Under the pieces are notes generated by a model, which was not told where the DNA came from, searched no databases, and was given only the letters and a program-made list of their open reading frames with translations. Both the position numbers and the translations under genes were made by a program. A stretch of 30,062 nt of DNA, from the NCBI GenBank assembly GCA_031364455.1, contig JANLWJ010000542.1, positions 1-30,062 on the forward strand. The letters are read 5' to 3'. The stretch is from Actinomycetes bacterium. Lineage in GTDB: Bacteria > Actinomycetota > Actinomycetes > JAHEKZ01. Positions 3,371 to 13,996 of this stretch are shown in pieces; position 1 is the stretch's first letter; every line of letters starts with the position of its first letter.

Positions 3371-4525
3371 TCAGGCGCCGCGGCTCTTGCGGAACGGGCC
3401 GACGACCTCAAAGGTGAGCCCCTCGTTGTCGATGCCCCGCTGCGAGCTGAAGTAGAGCCGCGTCCCGTCCGGGCTGAACGCCGTGCCGGTGATCGCGCTT
3501 CCGGTGTGGCCGACCAGCTGCAGGAACGGCGCGGACACCCGACGCCGGGTCGCATCGGCGAGCAGGACCAGCTGCAGGTCGACGTCGTCCTCGGCGACCA
3601 GGATGTCGCCGGACCGCTCATGCACCGTGATGCTGGCCGGGTGATGCAGCGGCGCGTCAGCTCCGACCACGTCGGCGTCGTAGATCACCTCGAGCTCACT
3701 GGTTGCCACGTTCATCGCCCACACCCGTTGGTCGGTGGTGGTCGCGAAGAACAGGTGACCGTCGGAGAACCAGGCGACGTCGCTGCGGTGGAAGCCGGTC
3801 GTCGCGTCACTGCGCTCTGGACGCCGCCCCGAGACCTCGACCCAGTCGACGTGACCGCTGCGTCGCACCTTGGCCGCCTCGAGGATGCCGGTCGACAGGT
3901 CGCCGTACTCGTCAGGACGGAAGCGGTAGACGCGTCCGTCGTAGTCGTCCTCGGTCAGGTAGACCCAGCCGGTGCGCGGGTCGACGGCAGCGGCGCCGTG
4001 CGGGAACGCGCCGACTCCGGGGCGGACGGCACCCTGACCCGGCTTCAGCGGGTCGCACTCCCACACCCGGCCCTGCCCGAACCGCTCACACGACAGCCAG
4101 GTGAACCACGGCGTCGCACCGCCGGCGCTGTTGTCTGGAGTGCCGTCGAGGATCCGGTACGCGTCGACGATGCGGCCATCGGCATTGAAGCGGATCGCCC
4201 CGGCGCCGCCTCCGTGACCGGGCAGGTCGGCGTTGCTCGCGTACACCCAGCCGCCGTCCTTGGTGCGGAAGGTCGCGCCACCGGCCGGCTCACCGTGCCA
4301 CGTGTAGTCGGAGCCGGCGACGAGGCGTCCGGTGCGGCCGATCAGCCGAGCGCGGAAGCCGCCCGGCAGGCGGATGCCGTAGATGTCCGGCTGGCCGAGC
4401 GGGCCATACGGCCCCAGGCCGATGAGGGCCGGCGACGCGAGCGCCCCGCGCCAGAAGTCGATGCCGTATGTGAGCGCGGGGGCCGGCCCGCGGTTCGGGG
4501 TCCGGTAGCGGTCCATGGTGGTCAT
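3371..4525 (-). CDS. PhoX/DUF839-family beta-propeller, probably catalytically inactive
   Basis: GPYGPL, GGATPWxTWLSCE, AVDP..VYLTED and ITGTAFSPDGTRLYFSSQRG match actinobacterial DUF839 proteins. Several expected metal ligands are substituted (see findings). Confidence 0.85.
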   Translation of the reverse strand: MTTMDRYRTPNRGPAPALTYGIDFWRGALASPALIGLGPYGPLGQPDIYGIRLPGGFRARLIGRTGRLVAGSDYTWHGEPAGGATFRTKDGGWVYASNADLPGHGGGAGAIRFNADGRIVDAYRILDGTPDNSAGGATPWFTWLSCERFGQGRVWECDPLKPGQGAVRPGVGAFPHGAAAVDPRTGWVYLTEDDYDGRVYRFRPDEYGDLSTGILEAAKVRRSGHVDWVEVSGRRPERSDATTGFHRSDVAWFSDGHLFFATTTDQRVWAMNVATSELEVIYDADVVGADAPLHHPASITVHERSGDILVAEDDVDLQLVLLADATRRRVSAPFLQLVGHTGSAITGTAFSPDGTRLYFSSQRGIDNEGLTFEVVGPFRKSRGA

Positions 4526-4724: not shown

Positions 4725-6161
4725 GTGGAGTTCGTTGCCCTCATCGCCCGGCTGGCCCTTGTGGGCACCTTTGTCATCTCCGCCGTCGCCAAGATCCGGG
4801 ACGCCGATGGCGCACGGCAGGCCGTCCGAGACTTCGGCGTCCCCGCAGGCATCGCTCCGCTGGTGGCCACCTCGCTGGCGCCACTCGAGCTGGCGTCGGC
4901 CGCCCTGCTGCTGACCACCGACCTCGGCGTCACCGCCGGCGCGCTCCTGGCGCTGGGGCTGCTGGCCGCGTTCACCGCCGGCATCGTCACCAACCTGCTG
5001 CGCGGCAACCGGGTCGACTGCCACTGCTTCGGCGCGATGTCGTCCAAGCCGCTCTCGTGGTGGTCGGTGGCACGCAACAGCGCGATGATGCTGCTGGCTG
5101 CTGTGGCGCTCGCAGGGGGAACGACGCAGGGCTGGCCGTGGCAGGTCGTGAGCGAAACCTTCGAGGGACTCTCCACAGCCCAGACGTGGCTCGCCGTGGG
5201 GCTGATCGCGCTGGCGCTGGTCGTCGTCGTGCTCGCCACTCTCTTCTTCGCGCTGCTGCAGCGCTACGGCGCGCTGCTGCTGCGCCTCGAGGCACTGGAG
5301 TCCTCCCCCGCCGGAGCGCACCACGGCCACGGCCACGCGCACGAGTTCGCCCCGTGGGCGGCGCCCGAGATCGCCGCGGTGGACGCGTCCGACGCCGACC
5401 TGACCCTTGACGACATCGCCGCCGACGACCGCGCCAGCCTCTTCGTCTTCGTTGCCCCGTGGTGCGAGGCGTGCGGCGAGCTCGTCGACGACTTCAAGGC
5501 GTGGCAGGCCGACGAGACCGGCCCCAACGTCGTCGTCCTCAGCGGCGGCGAGCGCGACGCGATCACCGCCAAGTTCGGCCCCGACGTTCGCGTGCTCGCC
5601 CACGACGGCGCGCCCGTCGACGACTACCGCGTCGAGTACACGCCGGGCGCTGTCGTGGTGAGCACCGACCGCATGGTGACCGTCACGCCGTCGTACGGCA
5701 CGGACGACGTGCGCCGCCTCTACAGCGCGCTTGCCGGACGCGAGCCGCAAGACCTGGTGATCGGCCCGCCGCCGGTGCGCGAGGGCGACCCGGCCCCGGA
5801 CGTCATGGTCGAGGTCGACGGTGAGCGGATGCCGATCGCCGCGGCAGCCGGCGACGACGCCGTCCTCCTCTTCTGGGACACCACCTGCGGGTTCTGCCAG
5901 CAGATCGAGGCTGACGTTCTGCGTCGGCAGGAGAGCGTGCCGCTGGTCCTGGTGCTGCGCGGCGACTCCGAGACGAGCGTCCGCGAGGCCGGGTTCACGA
6001 TGCCGGTGGCGCTCGACCCGACGTTCGGCGTCGGCGGGGCACTGCAGGCTCCCGGGACGCCGACCGCCGTCCGGCTGCGCGACGGCGAGATCGCGTCGAC
6101 GGTGGCTGTGGGCGGGCCAGAGGTGCTGAACCTGCTGGCGTCCGTCCGCGTCATGGGCTGA
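4725..6161 (+). CDS. MauE/DoxX membrane domain fused to two thioredoxin-like (TlpA/MauD-like) domains
   Basis: N-terminal helices with F..SAVAK and DCHCFG (MauE-type), His-rich linker HHGHGHAH, then PWCEAC and TTCGFC CxxC motifs, the second preceded by GDPAPD and followed by PGTP. GGAGG upstream of GTG 4725. Confidence 0.85.
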   Translation: MEFVALIARLALVGTFVISAVAKIRDADGARQAVRDFGVPAGIAPLVATSLAPLELASAALLLTTDLGVTAGALLALGLLAAFTAGIVTNLLRGNRVDCHCFGAMSSKPLSWWSVARNSAMMLLAAVALAGGTTQGWPWQVVSETFEGLSTAQTWLAVGLIALALVVVVLATLFFALLQRYGALLLRLEALESSPAGAHHGHGHAHEFAPWAAPEIAAVDASDADLTLDDIAADDRASLFVFVAPWCEACGELVDDFKAWQADETGPNVVVLSGGERDAITAKFGPDVRVLAHDGAPVDDYRVEYTPGAVVVSTDRMVTVTPSYGTDDVRRLYSALAGREPQDLVIGPPPVREGDPAPDVMVEVDGERMPIAAAAGDDAVLLFWDTTCGFCQQIEADVLRRQESVPLVLVLRGDSETSVREAGFTMPVALDPTFGVGGALQAPGTPTAVRLRDGEIASTVAVGGPEVLNLLASVRVMG

Positions 6162-6282
6162 CGCCCACCCTCGCAACGTGTTAGCTGCCTGGGGCTATAC
6201 CCCCAGCGAACGCACACGGTCCTGTCGATCTAGCGCGTGTCGGCGCTGTGCTCCCCTCTGACCCACCGGTCAGGATGAGCAG

Positions 6283-6582
6283 ATGACCGATGAGTGGGAG
6301 GTGCGGCTCACGCTGGCTGTCGAGCCGCCACCGGACGAGGGAACCGTTCACCGGATCGGGACGACGAAGCCGGTGCCGTGGTCGGGCGTTGGCCTGGCTG
6401 AGGGCGTCCAGGGGATCACCCGTCTCGCGCTCAACTTCGTCTCGACGCCGGCCACGCCCGCCCAGGCAGTGGCGCAAGCCTTCGCCAGCGTCGACAGCGC
6501 CCTCGACCAGCACGGCATCGGTCTCGAACGAGTGATCGACGTCGCTGTGGTGTCGGCGACCCGCGACGAGCGGGATTGGTAG
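6283..6582 (+). CDS. Hypothetical protein, 99 aa
   Basis: ATG preceded by AGGA/GAG, GC-rich third positions, mixed strand/helix pattern. No family recognised. Confidence 0.6.
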   Translation: MTDEWEVRLTLAVEPPPDEGTVHRIGTTKPVPWSGVGLAEGVQGITRLALNFVSTPATPAQAVAQAFASVDSALDQHGIGLERVIDVAVVSATRDERDW

Positions 6583-6736
6583 GCGGCCGGATGCCCTGCT
6601 GCGGCGTCCGTTAGCCCGAACGAGTGAGCCACCTCAGTTGATCTTCACCCGAATGGCGGTACGGCGATCCTTGGCGATCCCTCGGCGAAACGTTCCTCTG
6701 CTCAAGCCCGATAGCCCAATTGCCGAAGTTCTCTTC

Positions 6737-7372
6737 GTGGGGCACTGGCTCGACGCTCTGGCCAAGGCGTCGACCGGTCACCGAGCACGTCATCGCACAG
6801 GTGGCTCGGGGACTGAATCACCGCCTGAGTCCGGGCGTCCCGTAGAGATCTCCCCTGCGCCGAAAGCGCAGGGCCTGACTCGTCGCGCCCTGCTCCGCCG
6901 CGGTGCCGTGGTCGGCGCCGTGGTCTGGACGACACCGATCCTTCAGACGGCGCTCGCCCCAGCGGCGTCTGCCAGCCACTGCACCAGCAGCTGCCCCCTC
7001 GGCTCACCCTGCTCCCCGCTCATCTCGTGTCAGGCCGGACTCGTCTGCACCGGCGGGTTCTGCCTGGTGGCCACCGGCAGCGGAGGCTGCACCACGAACG
7101 CCGACTGCGCCAGTGGCGCCTGCTCGGGTGGCACGTGCCTGTCCTGGCCAGGCGCCACCTGTACCGCCAACAGCCAGTGCGCATCCAACAAGTGCGCCGG
7201 AGGCCAGTGCTTCGCCAACGGTCTCAACGGCGCCTGCCGAACGACGACTGACTGCACCGACAACACCACCTGCAGCGCCACCACCCAGACCTGCGGCGGG
7301 GTGGGAGCCGCCTGCGCCAACAACAACAAGTGCACGACCAACAAATGTCAGGGGGGCATCTGCGTTCCGTAG
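6737..7372 (+). CDS. Twin-arginine Cys-repeat precursor A (22 Cys in mature part)
   Basis: Start placed at GTG 6737 because MGHWLDALAK aligns with MSSWLDRWAR of the next gene and GAAGTT lies 6 nt upstream. Contains TRRALL, WTTPILQT, APAASA-S, then five 4-Cys modules. Confidence 0.85.
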   Translation: MGHWLDALAKASTGHRARHRTGGSGTESPPESGRPVEISPAPKAQGLTRRALLRRGAVVGAVVWTTPILQTALAPAASASHCTSSCPLGSPCSPLISCQAGLVCTGGFCLVATGSGGCTTNADCASGACSGGTCLSWPGATCTANSQCASNKCAGGQCFANGLNGACRTTTDCTDNTTCSATTQTCGGVGAACANNNKCTTNKCQGGICVP

Positions 7373-7494
7373 GCGGCCACACAGAGTGACCCACCCCACA
7401 GACAGACGGGTCGTATCGGCTCGACGGCTCGCGCGAAGTGCCCCTTTTCCCCTAGAGTGTGCCCGTCGGCAGTCGCACCTCCCGGGGGTAGCTC

Positions 7495-7881
7495 ATGAGC
7501 AGTTGGCTCGATCGTTGGGCCAGGCGCGCCGCCGAGGCGACGCCTAGTGCTGCTCAGGACGCCGTGGCGCCTTCGCGCCCCGCCCCCGCTGCATCCCGTC
7601 GTGACTTTCTGAAGAAGGCCGGCATTGTCGGCGGCGTCGCCTGGTCGGTACCTGTGCTCCAGACCGTGATGGCCCCGGCGGCGAGTGCGTCGTACGGCAC
7701 AGCGTTGGGTGGCACCTGTACGGGGACCGGCGCATGCAACAACGGACTAGCTAGCTGCTTCAATAATTCCTGCGGATCCGCTGGTGCACCCGTCCCGGGA
7801 GGCTGCCCAAGTGGGGGGCTCTCGGCGACGGGATGCCTTTCGGGCAAGTGCAACAACGGCACTAACCTCTGCAAGCCATAA
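7495..7881 (+). CDS. Twin-arginine Cys-repeat precursor B (8 Cys in mature part)
   Basis: MSSWLDRWAR, SRRDFLKK (strong Tat motif), WSVPVLQT, APAASA-S, two 4-Cys modules. GGGGG upstream of the ATG and TAGAGT at 7453-7458. Confidence 0.88.
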   Translation: MSSWLDRWARRAAEATPSAAQDAVAPSRPAPAASRRDFLKKAGIVGGVAWSVPVLQTVMAPAASASYGTALGGTCTGTGACNNGLASCFNNSCGSAGAPVPGGCPSGGLSATGCLSGKCNNGTNLCKP

Positions 7882-7894
7882 CATCTGAGGGTGG

Positions 7895-7927
7895 ATGTTT
7901 GAGGCCGTGCAAACTGGGACCAAATGA
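7895..7927 (+). other. 10-codon mini-ORF (MFEAVQTGTK*) in frame with and abutting the kinase-RRE ORF
   Basis: GAGG at 7887-7890, ATG 7895, TGA 7925-7927, then TTG 7928 in the same frame. Confidence 0.5.
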
Positions 7928-8863
7928 TTGTCTAGCGATTCGAGCGTCATCAACTCAACGCTCGAATTCATTGTCGGGCGACATGGGCGGCTTCTTCTAC
8001 ATGCCGGTGGCTCAGCAGAGCCGGGCGGGCGTGCGGTAGTTGTACATGGCGCCTCCGGCGCTGGCAAGACAACGCTTACTACTGCCCTCGTCCAGAGCGG
8101 GCACGCCTATATCACCGATGAGACGGTCTGCCTAGATCCCGACACGCTCGTCATTGAGCCCTTCACCAAGCCGCTCACCGTCAAGCCCGGGTCGCAAGAA
8201 CTGCTGGCGCATCTGGCGCCACCGCCCGACGAGGTCTCCGAGGGCAGCGGCAACTGGCAGCTCCCACCGGAACGCTTGGGCGGTCCAGCGCTTCCCGACA
8301 CCGCGCTGCGGCCGGCCGTCATCGTGTTCCCGGACGTCGACCCGGATCGCACCGATGTCGAGGCCACACCGGTCTCCCCCGCTCGCGCTGCCTTCGTGCT
8401 CGGCGAGCAGTCGAGCGCGATGTGGGCGATCGAGCCGCGTCCGTTGGCGGCGATCGCCCGGCTCGTCACCGCGGTCCCTGCCTTCCGGGTCTTCTACGGG
8501 AACGCATTCGACGCAGCACCGGTGATCATCAACGAGCTCATGGACGCTGCCCCACCCGACGGGCTCGAGCCGCCCTCCAACCTTCCCCAGCCCGCCCCCA
8601 CCGGAACCGCCGGGCCACGACGCGCCGACGGCGTCGACTGGATCCTGCTCGCAGGCGAAGCCGTTCTCTTTGACGGCGAACACCTGCACCATCTCGACGG
8701 CCCCGGCGCGGCCATCTGGCTCGCCCTCGACGGGGAGCTCGGCCTTCCGGGCGTCGCCGCGGAGCTCGCCGACCACTATGGCGCCGACGCCGACCACGTC
8801 CTGCTCGACGTCGAGGACCTCGTGCGCGTCCTCACCGCACGAAAGCTGATCACCCACCCCTGA
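7928..8863 (+). CDS. HPr-kinase-related P-loop protein fused to a C-terminal PqqD/RRE domain
   Basis: LLLHAG, GASGAGKTT (Walker A), YITDE, PFTKPL. The last ~85 aa follow the PqqD pattern (VLFD..LHHLDGPGAAIWLALDG..VAAELADHYG..DVEDLVRVL). N-terminus is unusually short and the start is uncertain. Confidence 0.82.
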   Translation: MSSDSSVINSTLEFIVGRHGRLLLHAGGSAEPGGRAVVVHGASGAGKTTLTTALVQSGHAYITDETVCLDPDTLVIEPFTKPLTVKPGSQELLAHLAPPPDEVSEGSGNWQLPPERLGGPALPDTALRPAVIVFPDVDPDRTDVEATPVSPARAAFVLGEQSSAMWAIEPRPLAAIARLVTAVPAFRVFYGNAFDAAPVIINELMDAAPPDGLEPPSNLPQPAPTGTAGPRRADGVDWILLAGEAVLFDGEHLHHLDGPGAAIWLALDGELGLPGVAAELADHYGADADHVLLDVEDLVRVLTARKLITHP

Positions 8864-8874
8864 TCGAGGCCTGC

Positions 8875-8921
8875 GATTGGAACCTAGGGGGTTCCTGGTG
8901 CCCCTTAGGTTCCAATCACGG
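8875..8921. repeat. Palindrome copy A (17-bp arms, 9-nt centre)
   Basis: GATTGGAACCTAGGGGG-ttcctggtg-CCCCTTAGGTTCCAATC-acgg; arms are reverse complements with one G/T mismatch. Related to 16730-16776. Confidence 0.85.
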
Positions 8922-9017
8922 CGGGTCCGCACCACCCGGCTGGCGGATGCCACCGGGGCTCGGCGTCCGCGATCCTTGATTGGTTGGGGACCAGTCGATG
9001 TGTAGGGGGACAGGATC

Positions 9018-10421
9018 GTGGGGGGACGTCGTTGGCGCGCGCTCGCGGCGTCCGCCTGTGCCGCGATGGCGCTGCTCGTGCTGCAGCCCACCACCGCCAG
9101 CGCGGTCGCTGACACGACACCGCCGAACCCGCCAACGATCACCGGGCCGAGCGGCCGCGTCGCATCGACGAGCGCCGACATCTCGGTGACGCGGGCTGAC
9201 CCATCCGACACCGTGCTGTGCTTTGCCGACGGCATCGAGGTGAATTGCCCCGGCTCGTGGACGATCAACGGCCTCGACGAAGGTGCGCACACCGTCACAG
9301 CCACCTCCTACGACGCCGCCATGAACGAGTCCGCCACGGTGTACGTCTACTGGGTGGTCGACTCCATCGGGCCGGTCGGCACGACGATCGCGCCGAGCGG
9401 ACTCACGACGAATGCCACCGTCAGCTTCAACGAGATCGTTGCCGGTGTCTCTGCATCGTCTGTCCGACTGGTTACGGACGCAGGGAGCGCGGTACCGGCA
9501 AGCAGATCTTGTGTGACCAACACTCTCGAGGCGACACCCTGCGGCAGCGCGAGCGTGCGCAAGGTGCTCCTCAAGCCAGACGCAGGCTGGGTTCTCGGTG
9601 AGCGATACCGAATTCTCGTGAACCCGGTGGGCGCAGCGACTGTCGCCGACGACCTCGGCAACATCGCCGCCGCAACGAACTCCGCGTTTCGCGTGCAGAC
9701 CTGGACCGAAGAGCTCGGTGCCACCTACACCTGGCGCAAAGTCACCAACGACAAGGCACGAGGTGGTTCGTACCTGGTCGAGCGACGCCAGGGAGCGAGC
9801 GCGACCTGGTCGTTCAGCGGCGGATCACTGACGTGGGTAACCATGACCGGCCCGGCACTCGGAAAGGCCGAGCTCTACGTCGACGACACGCTCCGCGGTA
9901 CGTACAACAACTACAGCGAGCGCGTGCGGTTTGGTGTCGAGCGATCGCTGACCGGTCTTGGTGCCGGGCAACACGTCGTCGAGGTGCGCGCGCTCGGCAA
10001 GAAGGGCGCCCGTGCCGGGACGGGAACGCTCGTTGCCGTGGACGGCTTTGTCACGGCCAGTGGCAGTGATGTCGCTCCGGTGGTCGCGCAGACGTGGCAG
10101 CGCACCGACAACGCGAACGCGTCCAACGGCTACTACTCCATCGCCGACCTCGGCAGCCAGACGGCGTCGCTTACGTTCCGCGGCACAGCCGTAACGCTTC
10201 ACACCGCTGTTGGTCCGCGGTTCGGCGAGGTGGCGCTCTTCGTCGACGGCGAGCTGGCCAAGACCGTGGACCTCTACGCGCCGGCGGTGGCGTTCGGCGA
10301 GCAGGTGACGGTCTCCGGCCTATCCGATGCCCGCCACACCCTCGAGTTACGCGTCCTGGGTTCGAGCGCAGCTGCGTCCGCCGGGACAGGTGTCGTGGTC
10401 GATCGCATCAGTGTCGGGTGA
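9018..10421 (+). CDS. Secreted modular protein: Ig-like domains plus two jelly-roll (carbohydrate-binding-like) repeats
   Basis: Signal peptide ending TTASA. DTTPP..P.IT and L.EGAHTVTATSYDAAMN.S (bacterial Ig-like). FNE.V..V...L...YRILV (SbsA-type Ig). Two repeats of A.LTF.G..V....GP..G...LYVDG.....L....H.LE.RVLG. Confidence 0.8.
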   Translation: MGGRRWRALAASACAAMALLVLQPTTASAVADTTPPNPPTITGPSGRVASTSADISVTRADPSDTVLCFADGIEVNCPGSWTINGLDEGAHTVTATSYDAAMNESATVYVYWVVDSIGPVGTTIAPSGLTTNATVSFNEIVAGVSASSVRLVTDAGSAVPASRSCVTNTLEATPCGSASVRKVLLKPDAGWVLGERYRILVNPVGAATVADDLGNIAAATNSAFRVQTWTEELGATYTWRKVTNDKARGGSYLVERRQGASATWSFSGGSLTWVTMTGPALGKAELYVDDTLRGTYNNYSERVRFGVERSLTGLGAGQHVVEVRALGKKGARAGTGTLVAVDGFVTASGSDVAPVVAQTWQRTDNANASNGYYSIADLGSQTASLTFRGTAVTLHTAVGPRFGEVALFVDGELAKTVDLYAPAVAFGEQVTVSGLSDARHTLELRVLGSSAAASAGTGVVVDRISVG

Positions 10422-10490: not shown

Positions 10491-12545
10491 TCAGCCCAGA
10501 CGGTCGGGGTCGGCCGCAGGGAGGATGTTGCCACCGAGGTCGGCCACTTGGACCTCCTCGTACGGAGCGGTCAATGGGTCAAGAGATGCACGCGGCGCCG
10601 TGAGCGGGTCGAAGGCGGGTCGCGGGGCTGGTGGCGTCCATGCCACGCCGGCCGGCGAGAACTCCTCGCCCACCGGCACTTCATCGACAGCAGTAAGCGG
10701 CACATCGTCGTCGAGGCCGAAGCGCGCGCCCGAAGCGGTATCGGACGGCAAGAGATCAACCTTTGGAAGACGGTGGCCGTACGGCGAGATCGCGTCGGCG
10801 AGCGGGACCCCGGCCGAGCCGCCGATCACCTTGTCCTCGGCAGGCACGACGGTTGAGAGCACCGGAGCGTCGCTCTTGGTCTCCTGCTTGCCCTCGCGGG
10901 CGACGGTGCTCGAAGAGACTGACACCGTCGGTGCGTCGGACGCGTGCACGGTTGCGGACGCCGCCGAACGCGGCGCGGGTTCTGGCGCGGGTTCACGCGC
11001 GGGGGCTGGCGCTGGCGCATCGGCGTCCTTGCCACCAGCGCCGTTCTTGACGGGGTCCACTTTCCCCACCGGGAAGGTCGGCGTCGGCGAACCATTTACA
11101 CCGGGCAACCCGCCGAAACCAGCGGGGATGACCGGTGCGTGGTCCTCGTACTTCCCGCGCGTCTCGGTTGCGCTGTAGTCGTACTGGTAGCCGTAGCCAT
11201 AGCGGTGCGAGTCCGGCCCGCGTGCTGGCGCCATGTTCATGACAAGGCCAAGGATCTTGCCGCCCACCGCCTCAACGCTGCTGACGGCCGTACGCAACTG
11301 CTCGCGGCGCGTCTTGCCTGTCGCAATCACCATCAACGCACCGCCCGCGAGTCGGGTCAGGACAGCGGCGTCAGTCACTGGCAGCAACGGAGGCGCGTCA
11401 ATGATCAGCGTCGCACGCTTCTCGAGGTGGTGAACGAGGTCAGACATCGCCTGGCTGCCGAGCAGCTCCGACGGGTTCGGCGGCAGTGGGCCGGATGCCA
11501 TAACCCAAAAGTTGCCGGTGGCGCCCCACGGCTGCAGCACGTCGTCAACGGTGGCGCGTCCGACGAGGACGTCGGTGAGGCCGGCGCCACCTTCGATGTT
11601 GAGATAGTCGGCGATCTTCGGGCGCCGCAGGTCTGCCTCGATCAGGAAGACCGGCTGACCGGTCTGTGCGATGGTGAGGGCGAGGTTGATCGCCGTCGTC
11701 GTCTTGCCTTCGCGCGGTACCGCACTGGTGATGACGATCGACTTCGGACGGTGGTCGATGTCGACGAACTGCAGGTTGGTGCGCACCTGCCGGAACGACT
11801 CCGCGCGCTTGCTCTGGCCCTGGACGTCGGTGAGCAGCGGTTTCTTCTCTGCGTCCGCCTCGTAGCCGATGACACCGAGTAGCGGCTGATCGAAGTGCTT
11901 GGCCAACGCATCGATCGACTTGAGGCGAGTGTCGAGGGTCTCCAGCAGCACCGCAGCACCGACACCAACTGCCAGGCCGACCAGAAAGCCAAGGGCCAGG
12001 TTGATCATCGTGCGCGGCGAGGACGGTGATGTGGGAAGCGAAGCCGGCTGAGTCGTCTTGATGGTGACCAGGGGGTCTCCACCCGCTGCCGGCACTTCAA
12101 GTTTGGCGACCTCAGCCCCCAGCTGCGCGGCCGTCGAGTTCGCGATCGACTGTGCGAGCGCCGGATTTGGGTCGGTGGCCGAAATCTCCAGTGTCACCGT
12201 GTCGAGCGGGTTGTTAACCTCGATCTGGCCGGCCAGCTGGCTCAGTGACTGCGGCAGCCCGAGGTCTTCCTTGACAGCACCCATGACGCCGTCAGCCGTG
12301 ACGACGTCCACGTAGGACTTCACCCGCTGCTGGGCGAAGTACGAACCGGTGAGTGCTTCACCAACGGCCGAGCCGCCACCTTCGGTGCTGCCGCCATTGA
12401 CCGAGACGAAGGTCGTCGCCGTGGCGGTGTACATCGGAGTGGCCAGCATCGAGGCGAGCGCTGCCGCCATGAGACCGAGGAGAGTGGTCGCCGTAATCAG
12501 GCGCCAACGAGCCCGAAGGATGTCTATGTAGTCCCGCAGATCCAC
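10491..12545 (-). CDS. wzc: Wzc-type polysaccharide co-polymerase / tyrosine autokinase with long Pro/Ala-rich tail
   Basis: Start moved to GTG 12545 (MDLRDYIDILRARW, GGAAGG upstream). Wzz-type N-terminus with two TM helices, ESFRQVRTNL, SAVPREGKTT, EADLRRP, IDAPP and Tyr cluster YGYGYQYDY. Confidence 0.92.
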   Translation of the reverse strand: MDLRDYIDILRARWRLITATTLLGLMAAALASMLATPMYTATATTFVSVNGGSTEGGGSAVGEALTGSYFAQQRVKSYVDVVTADGVMGAVKEDLGLPQSLSQLAGQIEVNNPLDTVTLEISATDPNPALAQSIANSTAAQLGAEVAKLEVPAAGGDPLVTIKTTQPASLPTSPSSPRTMINLALGFLVGLAVGVGAAVLLETLDTRLKSIDALAKHFDQPLLGVIGYEADAEKKPLLTDVQGQSKRAESFRQVRTNLQFVDIDHRPKSIVITSAVPREGKTTTAINLALTIAQTGQPVFLIEADLRRPKIADYLNIEGGAGLTDVLVGRATVDDVLQPWGATGNFWVMASGPLPPNPSELLGSQAMSDLVHHLEKRATLIIDAPPLLPVTDAAVLTRLAGGALMVIATGKTRREQLRTAVSSVEAVGGKILGLVMNMAPARGPDSHRYGYGYQYDYSATETRGKYEDHAPVIPAGFGGLPGVNGSPTPTFPVGKVDPVKNGAGGKDADAPAPAPAREPAPEPAPRSAASATVHASDAPTVSVSSSTVAREGKQETKSDAPVLSTVVPAEDKVIGGSAGVPLADAISPYGHRLPKVDLLPSDTASGARFGLDDDVPLTAVDEVPVGEEFSPAGVAWTPPAPRPAFDPLTAPRASLDPLTAPYEEVQVADLGGNILPAADPDRLG

Positions 12546-12581
12546 AGCGAGTGACCTTCCGGTTGCAGAGCGCCTCGACCC

Positions 12582-12607
12582 CTCTCGGCGCGGGGACGCG
12601 CCGAGAG
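12582..12607. promoter_or_regulatory. Perfect 11-bp stem-loop upstream of wzc
   Basis: CTCTCGGCGCG-ggga-CGCGCCGAGAG, 36 nt upstream of the wzc GTG. Function inferred only. Confidence 0.5.
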
Positions 12608-12680
12608 CACATGCAAGAGCGCCACCGCCGAAATCGGGGGCTCCCCCACCATGATGGCCTATGAACGCCAAAATTGGGAT

Positions 12681-13028
12681 GTGACGCGTGTGACAGAAGT
12701 GACGACTGGGACGTCACCGCGCTTCCGACGTCCGGAATGGGTCGCTCACGTGCTCGACGAGGCGGCCGAACCGCCCCGCGCTGTGCTGCTGCACCTGCCC
12801 TCTGGACGCCGGATCGGCCTCTCCGACACGGCCACCCGGGTCTGGCAAGAGATCGTCGCCTCCGGGGCCGAAGGCGTCCAAGTGGGTGTCATCACCGCCA
12901 ATGTGGCTCCTGAGTACGGGGTGGACCCTACGATCATCACTCACGACGTCGTCGCCCTGCTGGACGACATGGTCGCAGGCGAATGGGTCGAAATGGTTCA
13001 CGAGCACGAGGGGGGTGGGCAAGGATGA
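12681..13028 (+). CDS. Stand-alone PqqD/RRE-family protein
   Basis: AVLLHL.SG..IGLSDTATRVWQEI..ITANVAPEYGV..IITHDVVALLDDM..GEWV fits the PqqD/RRE pattern. Start uncertain (12651-12699). Stop overlaps the next ATG (ATGA). Confidence 0.8.
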   Translation: MTRVTEVTTGTSPRFRRPEWVAHVLDEAAEPPRAVLLHLPSGRRIGLSDTATRVWQEIVASGAEGVQVGVITANVAPEYGVDPTIITHDVVALLDDMVAGEWVEMVHEHEGGGQG

Positions 13029-13996
13029 GTCGCGGAGTCGTTACCGGTGGCATCGTCGGGGTGCTCGCCTTGGGCACCACGCTCCTTGTGGTGCTGGCCC
13101 TGCACCCGGCCCAGGTCGACGTTCCCCCCGTCGCGCCGTTCGAGATCGGGGCGGTCGCCGCCTACGGTGACACCGTCTGGCGGTGGGTCGGCCCCACCGA
13201 CTGCAACGCCGACGCCGACGTCGTCCAGCTGGAACGCAGTGTGGGCGGTGGCGACTGGATCGACAGCGCGATCCCGCTCTCCAACATCTTCGCCATCTCG
13301 TTCGCCGACGACCAACGCGGCCTGGCGACCGGGAACACCAGTGAGTGCGCCCGCGGAGTCGCCGTCACCACAACCGGCGGCCGCATCTGGAAGTACCGCC
13401 AGGACAACCCCGTCCTGCTCGACGCCTGGTTCCAGGGCAGCACCATCTGGGGCATCGAGCGGGTGATCGGTCAACCGGTGCTGGCGGCCTACAAGCTGGA
13501 CAGCCGCCTACGGCTGCGGCCGGTCCCTGGCATCGAACCGATCCAACCCTGCGACGCGTCCGACGGTGTCCCCGACCAGATCGCCTACTGGAACGACACC
13601 ACCGGGCTGCTCTTCTGCGAGAACGACGTCGTGGGGTCGCGCCTAGTCGCGCGCACCACCAACCAGGGCGAGAACTTCGAGCGGCTCGCTGACGACCGCC
13701 CAGCGACCGGCCTCGACGGCGGCGGGTCGGTGCTCGACATGGATGTCACCGGCACCGAGACCGTGTGGCTGCAGATCACCGCCGAGGCCGGATGCAGCGA
13801 GGGCCAGCTGCGGGTGAGCGACAGCCAGGGGGCGGTCTTTGCCCGGCTGCCGTGCCCGTCGAAGTCGGTGGAGATCAGCGAGGTCCTCGATGTGGCGTTC
13901 ACCAACGAGACCGACGGAGTCATGCTCGCCCTGCTCAACCGTGAGCCAGTGATGTACGTGACCAACGACGGCGGCGCCTCCTGGAGCACCAACTAG
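13025..13996 (+). CDS. Membrane-anchored Asp-box (BNR)/YCF48-like beta-propeller
   Basis: ATG 13025 overlaps the upstream stop. One N-terminal TM helix. Asp-box-like TTTGGRIW, TTNQGENF, SDSQGAVF, TNDGGASW, plus ISFADDQRG and VAFTNETDG. Six Cys. Confidence 0.75.
   Translation: MSRGVVTGGIVGVLALGTTLLVVLALHPAQVDVPPVAPFEIGAVAAYGDTVWRWVGPTDCNADADVVQLERSVGGGDWIDSAIPLSNIFAISFADDQRGLATGNTSECARGVAVTTTGGRIWKYRQDNPVLLDAWFQGSTIWGIERVIGQPVLAAYKLDSRLRLRPVPGIEPIQPCDASDGVPDQIAYWNDTTGLLFCENDVVGSRLVARTTNQGENFERLADDRPATGLDGGGSVLDMDVTGTETVWLQITAEAGCSEGQLRVSDSQGAVFARLPCPSKSVEISEVLDVAFTNETDGVMLALLNREPVMYVTNDGGASWSTN

Follow-up and report, generated by a model that had tools for sequence, protein, structure and literature searches.

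Analysis of a 30,062-nt contig (JANLWJ010000542.1, positions 1 to 30,062, hereafter the window) revealed two neighboring genes for Cys-rich proteins, termed precursors A and B, which share a composite leader built around a twin-arginine translocation (Tat) motif. The window, contig C163, belongs to a draft actinomycete genome (GCA_031364455.1; 3.03 Mb in 569 contigs, ~69% G+C) whose close relatives are soil metagenome-assembled genomes. In both proteins, the leader reads M-x-x-W-L-D-x-x-A-[KR], then a variable linker, the Tat motif and W-x-x-P-[VI]-L-Q-T...A-S-A↓S, where the arrow marks the predicted cleavage site. Precursor A (6737-7372, plus strand, GTG start, 211 residues, 22 Cys) has an 80-residue leader (6737-6976) that comprises the N-module MGHWLDALAKAST (6737-6775; WLD at residues 4-6), a 35-residue linker, the twin arginines (residues 49-50, 6881-6886), WTTPILQT (W64-T71, 6926-6949) and ASA↓S (A77-S80, 6965-6976), and a 131-residue core with 22 Cys (6977-7372) that is hypervariable among relatives. 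Precursor B (7495-7881, plus strand, ATG start, 128 residues, 8 Cys) has a 66-residue leader (7495-7692) with the N-module MSSWLDRWARRAA (7495-7533; WLD again at residues 4-6), a linker, SRRDFLKK with its twin arginines at residues 35-36 (7597-7602), WSVPVLQT (W50-T57, 7642-7665) and ASA↓S (A63-S66, 7681-7692), followed by a 62-residue core with 8 Cys (7693-7881). Both the shared three-part leader and the deep position of its arginines had been claimed in a preliminary description of this DNA, and both are borne out by the two open reading frames (ORFs).

The two precursors are 34% identical (BLASTP, E = 6e-16), with most of the matches in the leader, and the DNA of their Tat parts agrees in just 63 of 111 aligned columns (57%), which indicates that the leader is kept at the protein level and is not a product of recent gene conversion. 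A word-indexed search found 33 close homologs of B, and their alignment shows a nearly fixed MxxWLDRWAKRAA, a variable linker of Pro, Ala and Ser, SRRDFLKKAGIVGGVAWSVPVLQTVMAPAASAS and then unalignable Cys-rich cores. A profile built from 25 leaders was run against 1.84 billion representative proteins and gave 421 matches at E <= 1e-3; in the window, it matches the leaders of A (6740-6976, E = 1.5e-18) and B (E = 6e-32). About 65 of the 150 matches listed cover the whole profile, and the full three-part leader occurs in about 65-75 protein clusters, so that the pattern is far beyond chance. Ten positions are invariant in the 25-leader alignment (W4, A9, R35, R36, W50, P53, A60, P61, A65 and S66, in B numbering), and the arginines are separated from the tryptophan by exactly 13 residues in 147 of 165 sequences. 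The description of the leader as three parts therefore needs one amendment: all parts are present, and they are better viewed as an N-module plus a single RR-(13 residues)-WxxP module of fixed geometry. Within the own genome, this leader is found only on A and B, and 35 other Tat-like candidates carry no W..P.

Across 73 full-length members, pairwise identity averages 61% over the N-module (WLDxxA[KR]xxA, which always starts at residue 4) and 60% over the Tat/WxxP module, compared with 28.5% for linkers of 7-43 residues and 37% for cores of 40-290 residues with 6-42 Cys. Ordinary signal peptides are less conserved than their cargo; a leader that is more conserved than its cargo argues for a sequence-specific reader. 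Shared ancestry combined with diversifying cores, as in toxin gene families, could give a similar picture, with the leader being a lineage-flavored Tat signal and nothing else; this explanation is weighed below with the genomic context. The remaining profile matches cover only profile positions of about 27-65 and begin near residue 5 of small and in many cases Cys-rich proteins. They define a second leader class that lacks WLD and has the consensus G-x-S-R-R-D-x-L-K-R-A-A-I-x-G-G-x-x-W-x-x-P-V-I-Q-S-x-x-x-P-A-x-A, in which RR, W and P are invariant. No NCBIfam model lies over the RR-WxxP module except the generic Tat signal.

In precursor B, SRRDFLKK is followed by a 24-residue hydrophobic and c-region ending in ASA, and the segment scores 19.6 bits against the TIGR01409 cut-off of 16.7, which makes it a predicted Tat signal. 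TRRALLRR of precursor A is a weaker match and receives no TIGR01409 call. The genome encodes TatC and a bacterial signal peptidase I. Position W+16, the predicted +1 residue, is Ser in 83% of the WLD-class leaders, Ser or Thr stands at W+7 in 91-95% of the leaders in both classes, and a small-x-small site is conserved at a fixed distance past the tryptophan. This last feature speaks against the idea that the arginines and the hydrophobic segment form an uncleaved N-in membrane anchor, or no export signal at all, with WxxP serving for recognition only. Such an anchor would suit the fusion families described below, where a folded PqqD domain precedes the arginines, an unusual arrangement for a cleavable signal. 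We consider it very unlikely, since SRRxFLK is a full Tat consensus and the Cys-rich cores are paired with a putative extracytoplasmic oxidase, in addition to the conserved small-x-small site.

The gene next to precursor B (7928-8863, plus strand) is predicted to encode an HprK-like P-loop domain (GASGAGKTT) with a C-terminal PqqD domain (residues 244-308, 8657-8851; PF05402, 1.9e-9) of the type known as the recognition element (RRE) of peptides that are made on ribosomes and modified after translation (RiPPs). Its Walker A motif is intact, its match to Hpr_kinase_C is weak, and its match to TIGR04352 (HprK-related kinase A; 5e-20) stays below the cut-off (71.7 bits vs 200). Comparison of this kinase-RRE sequence with solved structures gave P-loop noise, plus HprK and PqqD at E of about 0.4. 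A second, stand-alone PqqD/RRE gene lies further downstream (12651-13028, plus strand; PF05402, 6.6e-9), and its link to the precursors is uncertain.

Association of the RR-WxxP module with such genes was surveyed in 301 genomes of the phylum that are >=90% complete, using the RR-WxxP profile, TIGR04352 and PF05402; only seven candidates per genome were scored, and many leader matches without a linked gene lie on short contigs. The 54 strong RR-WxxP matches fall in 26 genomes, which include one unpublished genome (G041), the source of one linked match in these counts. An HprK-like match lies within 3 kb of 38 of the 54, and within 1 kb of 29, and the number rises to 41 when an HprK-like or a PqqD match within 3 kb is accepted. 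Uniform placement would give 0.28 linked matches vs the 38 observed, a comparison that is not corrected for relatedness. At least one linked copy is present in 24 of the 26 leader-bearing genomes, and an HprK-like match is found in 25 of the 26 vs 36 of the 274 others, again uncorrected for relatedness. The preliminary description had named as a possible refutation that the motif might be common in Tat signals of genomes that lack any RRE; the survey points the other way, since RR-(13 residues)-WxxPV[IL]Q[ST] is not a generic Tat feature and is seen almost exclusively beside HprK-like or PqqD genes. AWxxPV after the arginines might have been expected to be a common actinobacterial Tat flavor, which the survey does not bear out: no strong match was found in the large same-class genomes of families f23 and f24, and the Tat candidates of the own genome lack it. 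Matches in Sphingobacterium from a contig scan were ordinary oxidoreductase Tat signals without W..P and are irrelevant.

In the 15 loci inspected, which come from diverse lineages, a PqqD gene recurs together with one or two HprK-like genes and one to several genes that bear the leader, and the common surroundings of this unit are genes for glycosyltransferases, sugar transferases, Asn synthase, GNAT and Wzz proteins. Beyond HprK-like genes, PqqD genes and precursors, nothing was common to these 15 loci, and no protease was among the shared genes. Many cassettes with WLD-less leaders (L033, L035, L038, L044 and others) contain two adjacent HprK-like paralogs, one with a strong and one with a weak profile match, which suggests an active/degenerate pair. 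The abundance of polysaccharide genes matters for the reading of the leader as a Tat signal only, in which the RRE and the kinase would act elsewhere in the glycan locus, possibly on those genes' products as their real clients. The canonical Tat motif recognized by TIGR01409 fits that explanation, as do the 16 of 54 leader matches (many on short contigs) without an HprK-like gene within 3 kb. It nevertheless appears unlikely: W and P keep their identity and spacing without exception in different classes of the phylum and turn up again only next to HprK-like and PqqD genes, the PqqD domain has repeatedly been fused to the leader, motif and register match an experimentally defined RRE-binding motif (see below), and the other Tat signals of the own genome lack the motif.

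Two of the leader-profile matches led to two unrelated families in which a PqqD/RRE domain is joined N-terminally to an RR leader and core in one chain. The first (P0141 family) comprises at least 271 clusters of about 160 residues, whose named sources are labeled 'PqqD family protein' from Blastocatellia or Pyrinomonadaceae (Acidobacteriota), and has the layout PqqD, linker, SRREVMKRIGLAAAVALPVVTSIVAPTAAQAA and a 6-Cys peptide. HprK-like genes lie directly upstream of such fusions in L031 and L049, the latter an acidobacterial locus that also holds an NTP_transf_5 gene (PF14907), Wzz, a ParA-type kinase and Asn synthase. The second (P0164 family) comprises 13 actinobacterial clusters, one of them labeled Pseudonocardiales, with the leader DRRRFLRRSVLVGGSA.A.P.IQTVLAPSAFAAG. 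The cores of the fusion families are Cys-rich or beta-rich. Because an RRE has been fused to this leader twice independently, a direct functional link between the two is indicated. Three positions before the invariant proline, both fused families have V, I, L, A, M or G (W or Y in 0 of 115). Separate leaders almost invariably have W there, the exceptions among about 100 being P0083 and P0138. From these sequences we infer that an aromatic residue may be needed for affinity in trans and dispensable once the leader is tethered.

A structure model points in the same direction. AlphaFold2 was applied to a natural acidobacterial fusion (103-sequence alignment, pLDDT 78.9) and predicted three strands and three helices, corresponding to an RRE fold whose closest solved relatives are lasso B1 RREs with leader peptides (5v1u, 5v1v and 6jx3) and PqqD (5sxy). 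In this model, the arginines lie in a short helix and a five-residue beta strand, VTSIL (pLDDT about 73), starts right after the invariant proline, where a continued signal helix would be expected and is not found. The equivalent segment of precursor B is V54-V58. A five-residue strand in the DSSP assignment must pair with another strand, and in this model only the RRE sheet offers strands that long; the leader strand thus likely docks on this sheet. The corresponding model of the actinobacterial fusion P0164 (13 sequences) has pLDDT values of 33-43 in the leader and is too poor to count.

In the window's own family (f1), the WLD-bearing leader is present in 10 of 19 genomes, with 2-5 tandem genes per locus, and it was not found in 21 other sampled families of the class. 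A kinase-RRE ortholog occurs in exactly these ten genomes, in the same locus, mostly less than 1 kb away and often with precursors on both sides. The gene for a MauE-thioredoxin fusion, described below for the window, usually lies directly upstream of the precursors in these loci, and also in the divergent L045 and L047; divergent WFD-type members keep the order MauE-thioredoxin (42-48% identity), precursor, kinase-RRE (40% identity). In G016, the MauE-thioredoxin gene is 19 kb away and the kinase-RRE gene still adjoins the precursors, which makes the kinase-RRE the tighter partner. The WLD module is confined to the lineage with kinase-RRE and MauE-thioredoxin fusions, and co-occurrence does not separate these two as its partner. 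G016 holds two cassettes (on C9, locus L028, and on C7), one of WLD type and one a separate WLD-less RR-WxxP cassette with its own HprK-like and PqqD genes; the latter lies inside a glycan cluster of DegT, GT4, Bac_transf, Asn-synthase, GNAT and epimerase genes. Since a second, WLD-less system is carried by G016, we would guess that the WLDxxA[KR] helix is a lineage-specific add-on for affinity or specificity toward its own kinase-RRE. A third WLD-type precursor (MGSWIDRAARRAA...) in L030 (G017:C1:88000-97000, about 3850-3950, minus strand) is frameshifted between the N-module and the arginines, probably owing to an assembly error in this long-read genome.

The preliminary description had also proposed that two leader motifs match the two RREs of the locus. 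Translated into a mechanism, each RRE would recognize one of the modules, WLD in the one case and WxxP in the other. A stand-alone PqqD ortholog does accompany WLD-type precursors in 9 of the 10 leader-bearing f1 genomes, and on contig C1 of G017 two precursor loci without a kinase-RRE fusion each have a stand-alone PqqD gene within about 2-6 kb. This proposal is not upheld, and we regard it as quite unlikely, because G003 (97% complete) and G012 (88% complete, in 370 contigs) keep the stand-alone gene and yielded neither a precursor nor a kinase-RRE ortholog, because paired PqqD genes are also frequent beside leaders without WLD, and because WLDxxA[KR] is unlike any known RRE-binding motif. 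In the systems published so far, a pair of RREs is there for two types of precursor and not for two motifs within a single leader.

The remaining genes of the window include one that bears on the fate of the cores. Upstream of precursor A, a plus-strand gene (4725-6161) encodes a fusion of two thioredoxin-like domains to a MauE/DoxX membrane domain that contains a CHC motif (Pfam MauE 5e-27, Thioredoxin_2 2e-7; weak MauD match). MauE replaces DsbB via a CXC active site and is now viewed as a general DsbB-like oxidase (bioRxiv 10.64898/2026.03.05.709764). Because the CHC motif fits this CXC, the fusion is likely, by analogy, to be an extracytoplasmic disulfide oxidase for the exported Cys-rich cores. 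Between it and precursor A lies an ORF of 99 residues (6283-6582, plus strand) with no Pfam or NCBIfam match; an ORF of 99-109 residues occupies the same position in L001, L002 and L013, and is not present in L014. Downstream, the gene for a membrane-anchored propeller-like protein (12983-13996, plus strand) begins inside the stand-alone PqqD gene, and a Wzz/Wzc-like gene (10491-12671) is divergent from this PqqD gene. Further neighbors in the window encode a secreted protein, a DUF4012 protein and an LPXTG-type protein. A G-rich run resembling a Shine-Dalgarno sequence (GGGGG) is located 8 nt 5' of the ATG of precursor B. A-type orthologs P0066 and P0068 were called with an upstream extension, and their conservation starts exactly at V-G-H-W-L-D. 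Promoter and terminator scans of 6100-9100 found nothing.

A maturation pathway is proposed on this basis. A and B would be precursors of exported disulfide-rich proteins with a composite leader, whose C-terminal 34 residues would be a real Tat signal. The second half of this signal would have been turned into an RRE-binding motif of the type known from lasso peptides and linear polyphosphorylated peptides (LPP). The adjacent kinase-RRE fusion would, in the cytoplasm, bind this motif as a beta strand through its PqqD/RRE domain and retain the signal while its HprK-like domain acts on the precursor, most likely, by analogy with the kinase LppK of LPP clusters, by phosphorylating the conserved Ser that flanks the predicted cut, S66 of B and S80 of A. 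After release, the protein would be exported by Tat, the leader would be removed by the housekeeping signal peptidase I, and the MauE-thioredoxin fusion would finally make the disulfides. On balance we favor this double use of a Tat leader, for RRE/kinase recognition and for export, because of the conservation and fixed geometry of the module, the genomic linkage, the fusions, a model of moderate confidence and the published biochemistry of the nearest system. It had been suggested in the preliminary description that one leader serves both purposes; the association part of that suggestion stands, through linkage and PqqD fusions in two families, and the dual function itself is what these sequences would imply.

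An alternative that shares the recognition step is that the RRE-kinase protein is a Tat proofreading chaperone, which masks the signal and uses ATP for its release, with no covalent modification. Chaperones that bind Tat signals, such as TorD, DmsD and NapD, are well established. The divergence of the HprK-like domain would be in keeping with such a role, as would the lack of an NTP-transferase in the genome to extend a phosphate and the lack of a conserved C-terminal Ser in the cores of the 73 full-length members. The intact Walker A motif and the conserved Ser by the cleavage site point toward phosphorylation instead, and the characterized HprK-like partners of RREs are true kinases (PMC13381572). 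We therefore assign the chaperone explanation a small but real chance.

Several observations weigh against the proposed double use. Besides the 16 leader matches without an HprK-like gene nearby, the kinase-like domain, with a score far short of the TIGR04352 cut-off, could be a non-catalytic ATPase. The structure model is of moderate confidence and comes from a fused relative of another phylum, and docking is deduced from its strand assignment only. The cleavage site is predicted from the -3/-1 rule only. An RRE that sits on the hydrophobic core of the signal must let go before export, and no release mechanism is known. Finally, no run resembling a Shine-Dalgarno sequence (GGAGG or a G-run) lies just 5' of the GTG of precursor A (6700-6740).

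If the double use is true, a twin-arginine signal would here act as a RiPP-type leader for the first time, as far as the searchable literature shows: papers joining 'Tat signal' with RiPP terms were not found, and those with both PqqD and twin-arginine were unrelated. It would also provide a substrate class for orphan 'HPr-rel-A'-type kinase/chaperone cassettes, and it would extend the LPP/paeninodin logic of a [Y/W]xxP leader, an RRE, an HprK-like kinase and signal-peptidase-type cleavage beyond Bacillota. The 37-residue rule RR-(13 residues)-WxxPV[IL]Q[ST]...AxA could then be used to mine hundreds of hypervariable disulfide-rich secreted proteins of soil bacteria, and the handover of a signal peptide from a cytoplasmic reader to the translocase would become a mechanistic question. 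More broadly, a possibility that we rate somewhat below even odds is that these loci represent an undescribed class of modified secreted peptides and proteins, widespread in Actinomycetota and with cis-fused relatives in Acidobacteriota, in which the Tat signal is the RRE-read leader and housekeeping Tat and signal peptidase I replace the dedicated exporter and peptidase of LPP and lasso pathways. In the window's lineage, the WLD module would then allow the kinase-RRE fusion to distinguish its own precursors from those of a co-resident WLD-less system.

Parts of this arrangement resemble known systems. The proofreading chaperones TorD, DmsD and NapD likewise are cytoplasmic proteins that bind Tat signals before export; they have unrelated folds and serve cofactor enzymes. 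In methylamine dehydrogenase maturation, MauA is a small Cys-rich protein with a long Tat-type leader. The likeness lies in a small Cys-rich protein matured with MauE and a thioredoxin-like partner (MauD), and the difference is that no amine dehydrogenase and no MauG are present here. The NCBIfam HPr-rel-A system pairs the same two families in glycan loci, HprK-related kinase A (TIGR04352) and a PqqD family peptide chaperone (TIGR04353). The window protein is not a member by these models: it fails the TIGR04352 cut-off as given above, and TIGR04353 is not listed for it. No leader model exists in the family libraries searched, the literature searched made no mention of HPr-rel-A or HprK-related kinase A, and the two RRE-Finder papers do not mention HPr, kinases or Tat. 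Bufferins, which are MNIO-modified (PMC11626156), also carry a general export signal on a modified peptide precursor; in contrast to the leader described here, their signals are Sec-type and are reported without a specific RRE motif (PMC12710340).

Lasso peptides of the paeninodin type are closer. Paeninodin-type leaders, which are also served by HprK-like kinases, use WxxP (PMC13381572), as do A and B, in place of YxxP; in both systems an HprK-like kinase acts, here by prediction, on a leader-bearing precursor, and the RRE fold is nearest to lasso B1. Discrete lasso and LPP RREs recognize [Y/W]xxPx[L/V/I/F/A] (PMC13381572), and WSVPVL of B and WTTPIL of A fit this motif, so that the resemblance of WxxPxL to the lasso YxxPxL motif, pointed out in the preliminary description, is more than cosmetic. 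The system differs from paeninodins in having no macrolactam and no conserved C-terminal Ser acceptor, and in a leader that is itself the predicted export signal. Neither a macrolactam cyclase (Asn-synthetase-like C protein) nor a B2 cysteine protease was found among the window ORFs, and the Asn synthase genes of related loci sit among glycan genes.

The nearest system is that of the LPP clusters in capsule loci of Bacillota, in which LppK is an HprK-like kinase, LppB a discrete RRE, LppS an archaeal/SipW-type signal peptidase I, LppD an MsbA-like exporter and LppN an NTP-transferase (Popov et al., Nat Commun 2026, PMC13381572). LppA precursors of 35-200 residues have the conserved leader YxxPxVLxHQxIxFETxxS and variable C-termini; pockets of the RRE take Y-16, P-13 and V-11, LppS cleaves after T-1 only when the leader is presented by LppB, and LppK polyphosphorylates Ser+3 (PMC13381572). 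When the leaders of A and B are numbered from the site predicted by the -3/-1 rule, W50, P53 and L55 of B (before S66) and W64, P67 and L69 of A (before S80) fall at -16, -13 and -11, and thus an aromatic residue, a proline and a hydrophobic residue stand at the same distances as in LppA. Both systems further share hypervariable cores, one to several precursors per locus, polysaccharide gene surroundings, a Ser near the cleavage site, signal-peptidase-I-type cleavage (predicted here, shown for LPP), an HprK-like kinase gene beside the precursors (a predicted kinase here) and a PqqD-like RRE domain, which in the window is fused to the kinase and not discrete.

No peptidase family and no ABC transporter were found among the window ORFs that would correspond to the SipW-type peptidase and the MsbA-like exporter. 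Genome-wide, TIGR02228 gave sub-cut-off matches only, which coincide with bacterial-type LepB genes on other contigs, and PF14907 (NTP_transf_5) had no match in the whole genome. Tat probably stands in for the dedicated exporter of LPP, and the housekeeping signal peptidase for its peptidase. Popov et al. regard both LPP and paeninodins as confined to Bacillota (PMC13381572), and the loci described here belong to Actinomycetota; the motif lies inside a twin-arginine signal, an N-terminal WLD module and a MauE-thioredoxin oxidase are added, and the cores reach the lengths and Cys contents given above. Read most simply, this comparison suggests that a Tat signal and a lasso/LPP-type leader have become one, in a kinase-RRE pathway that is LPP/paeninodin-like.

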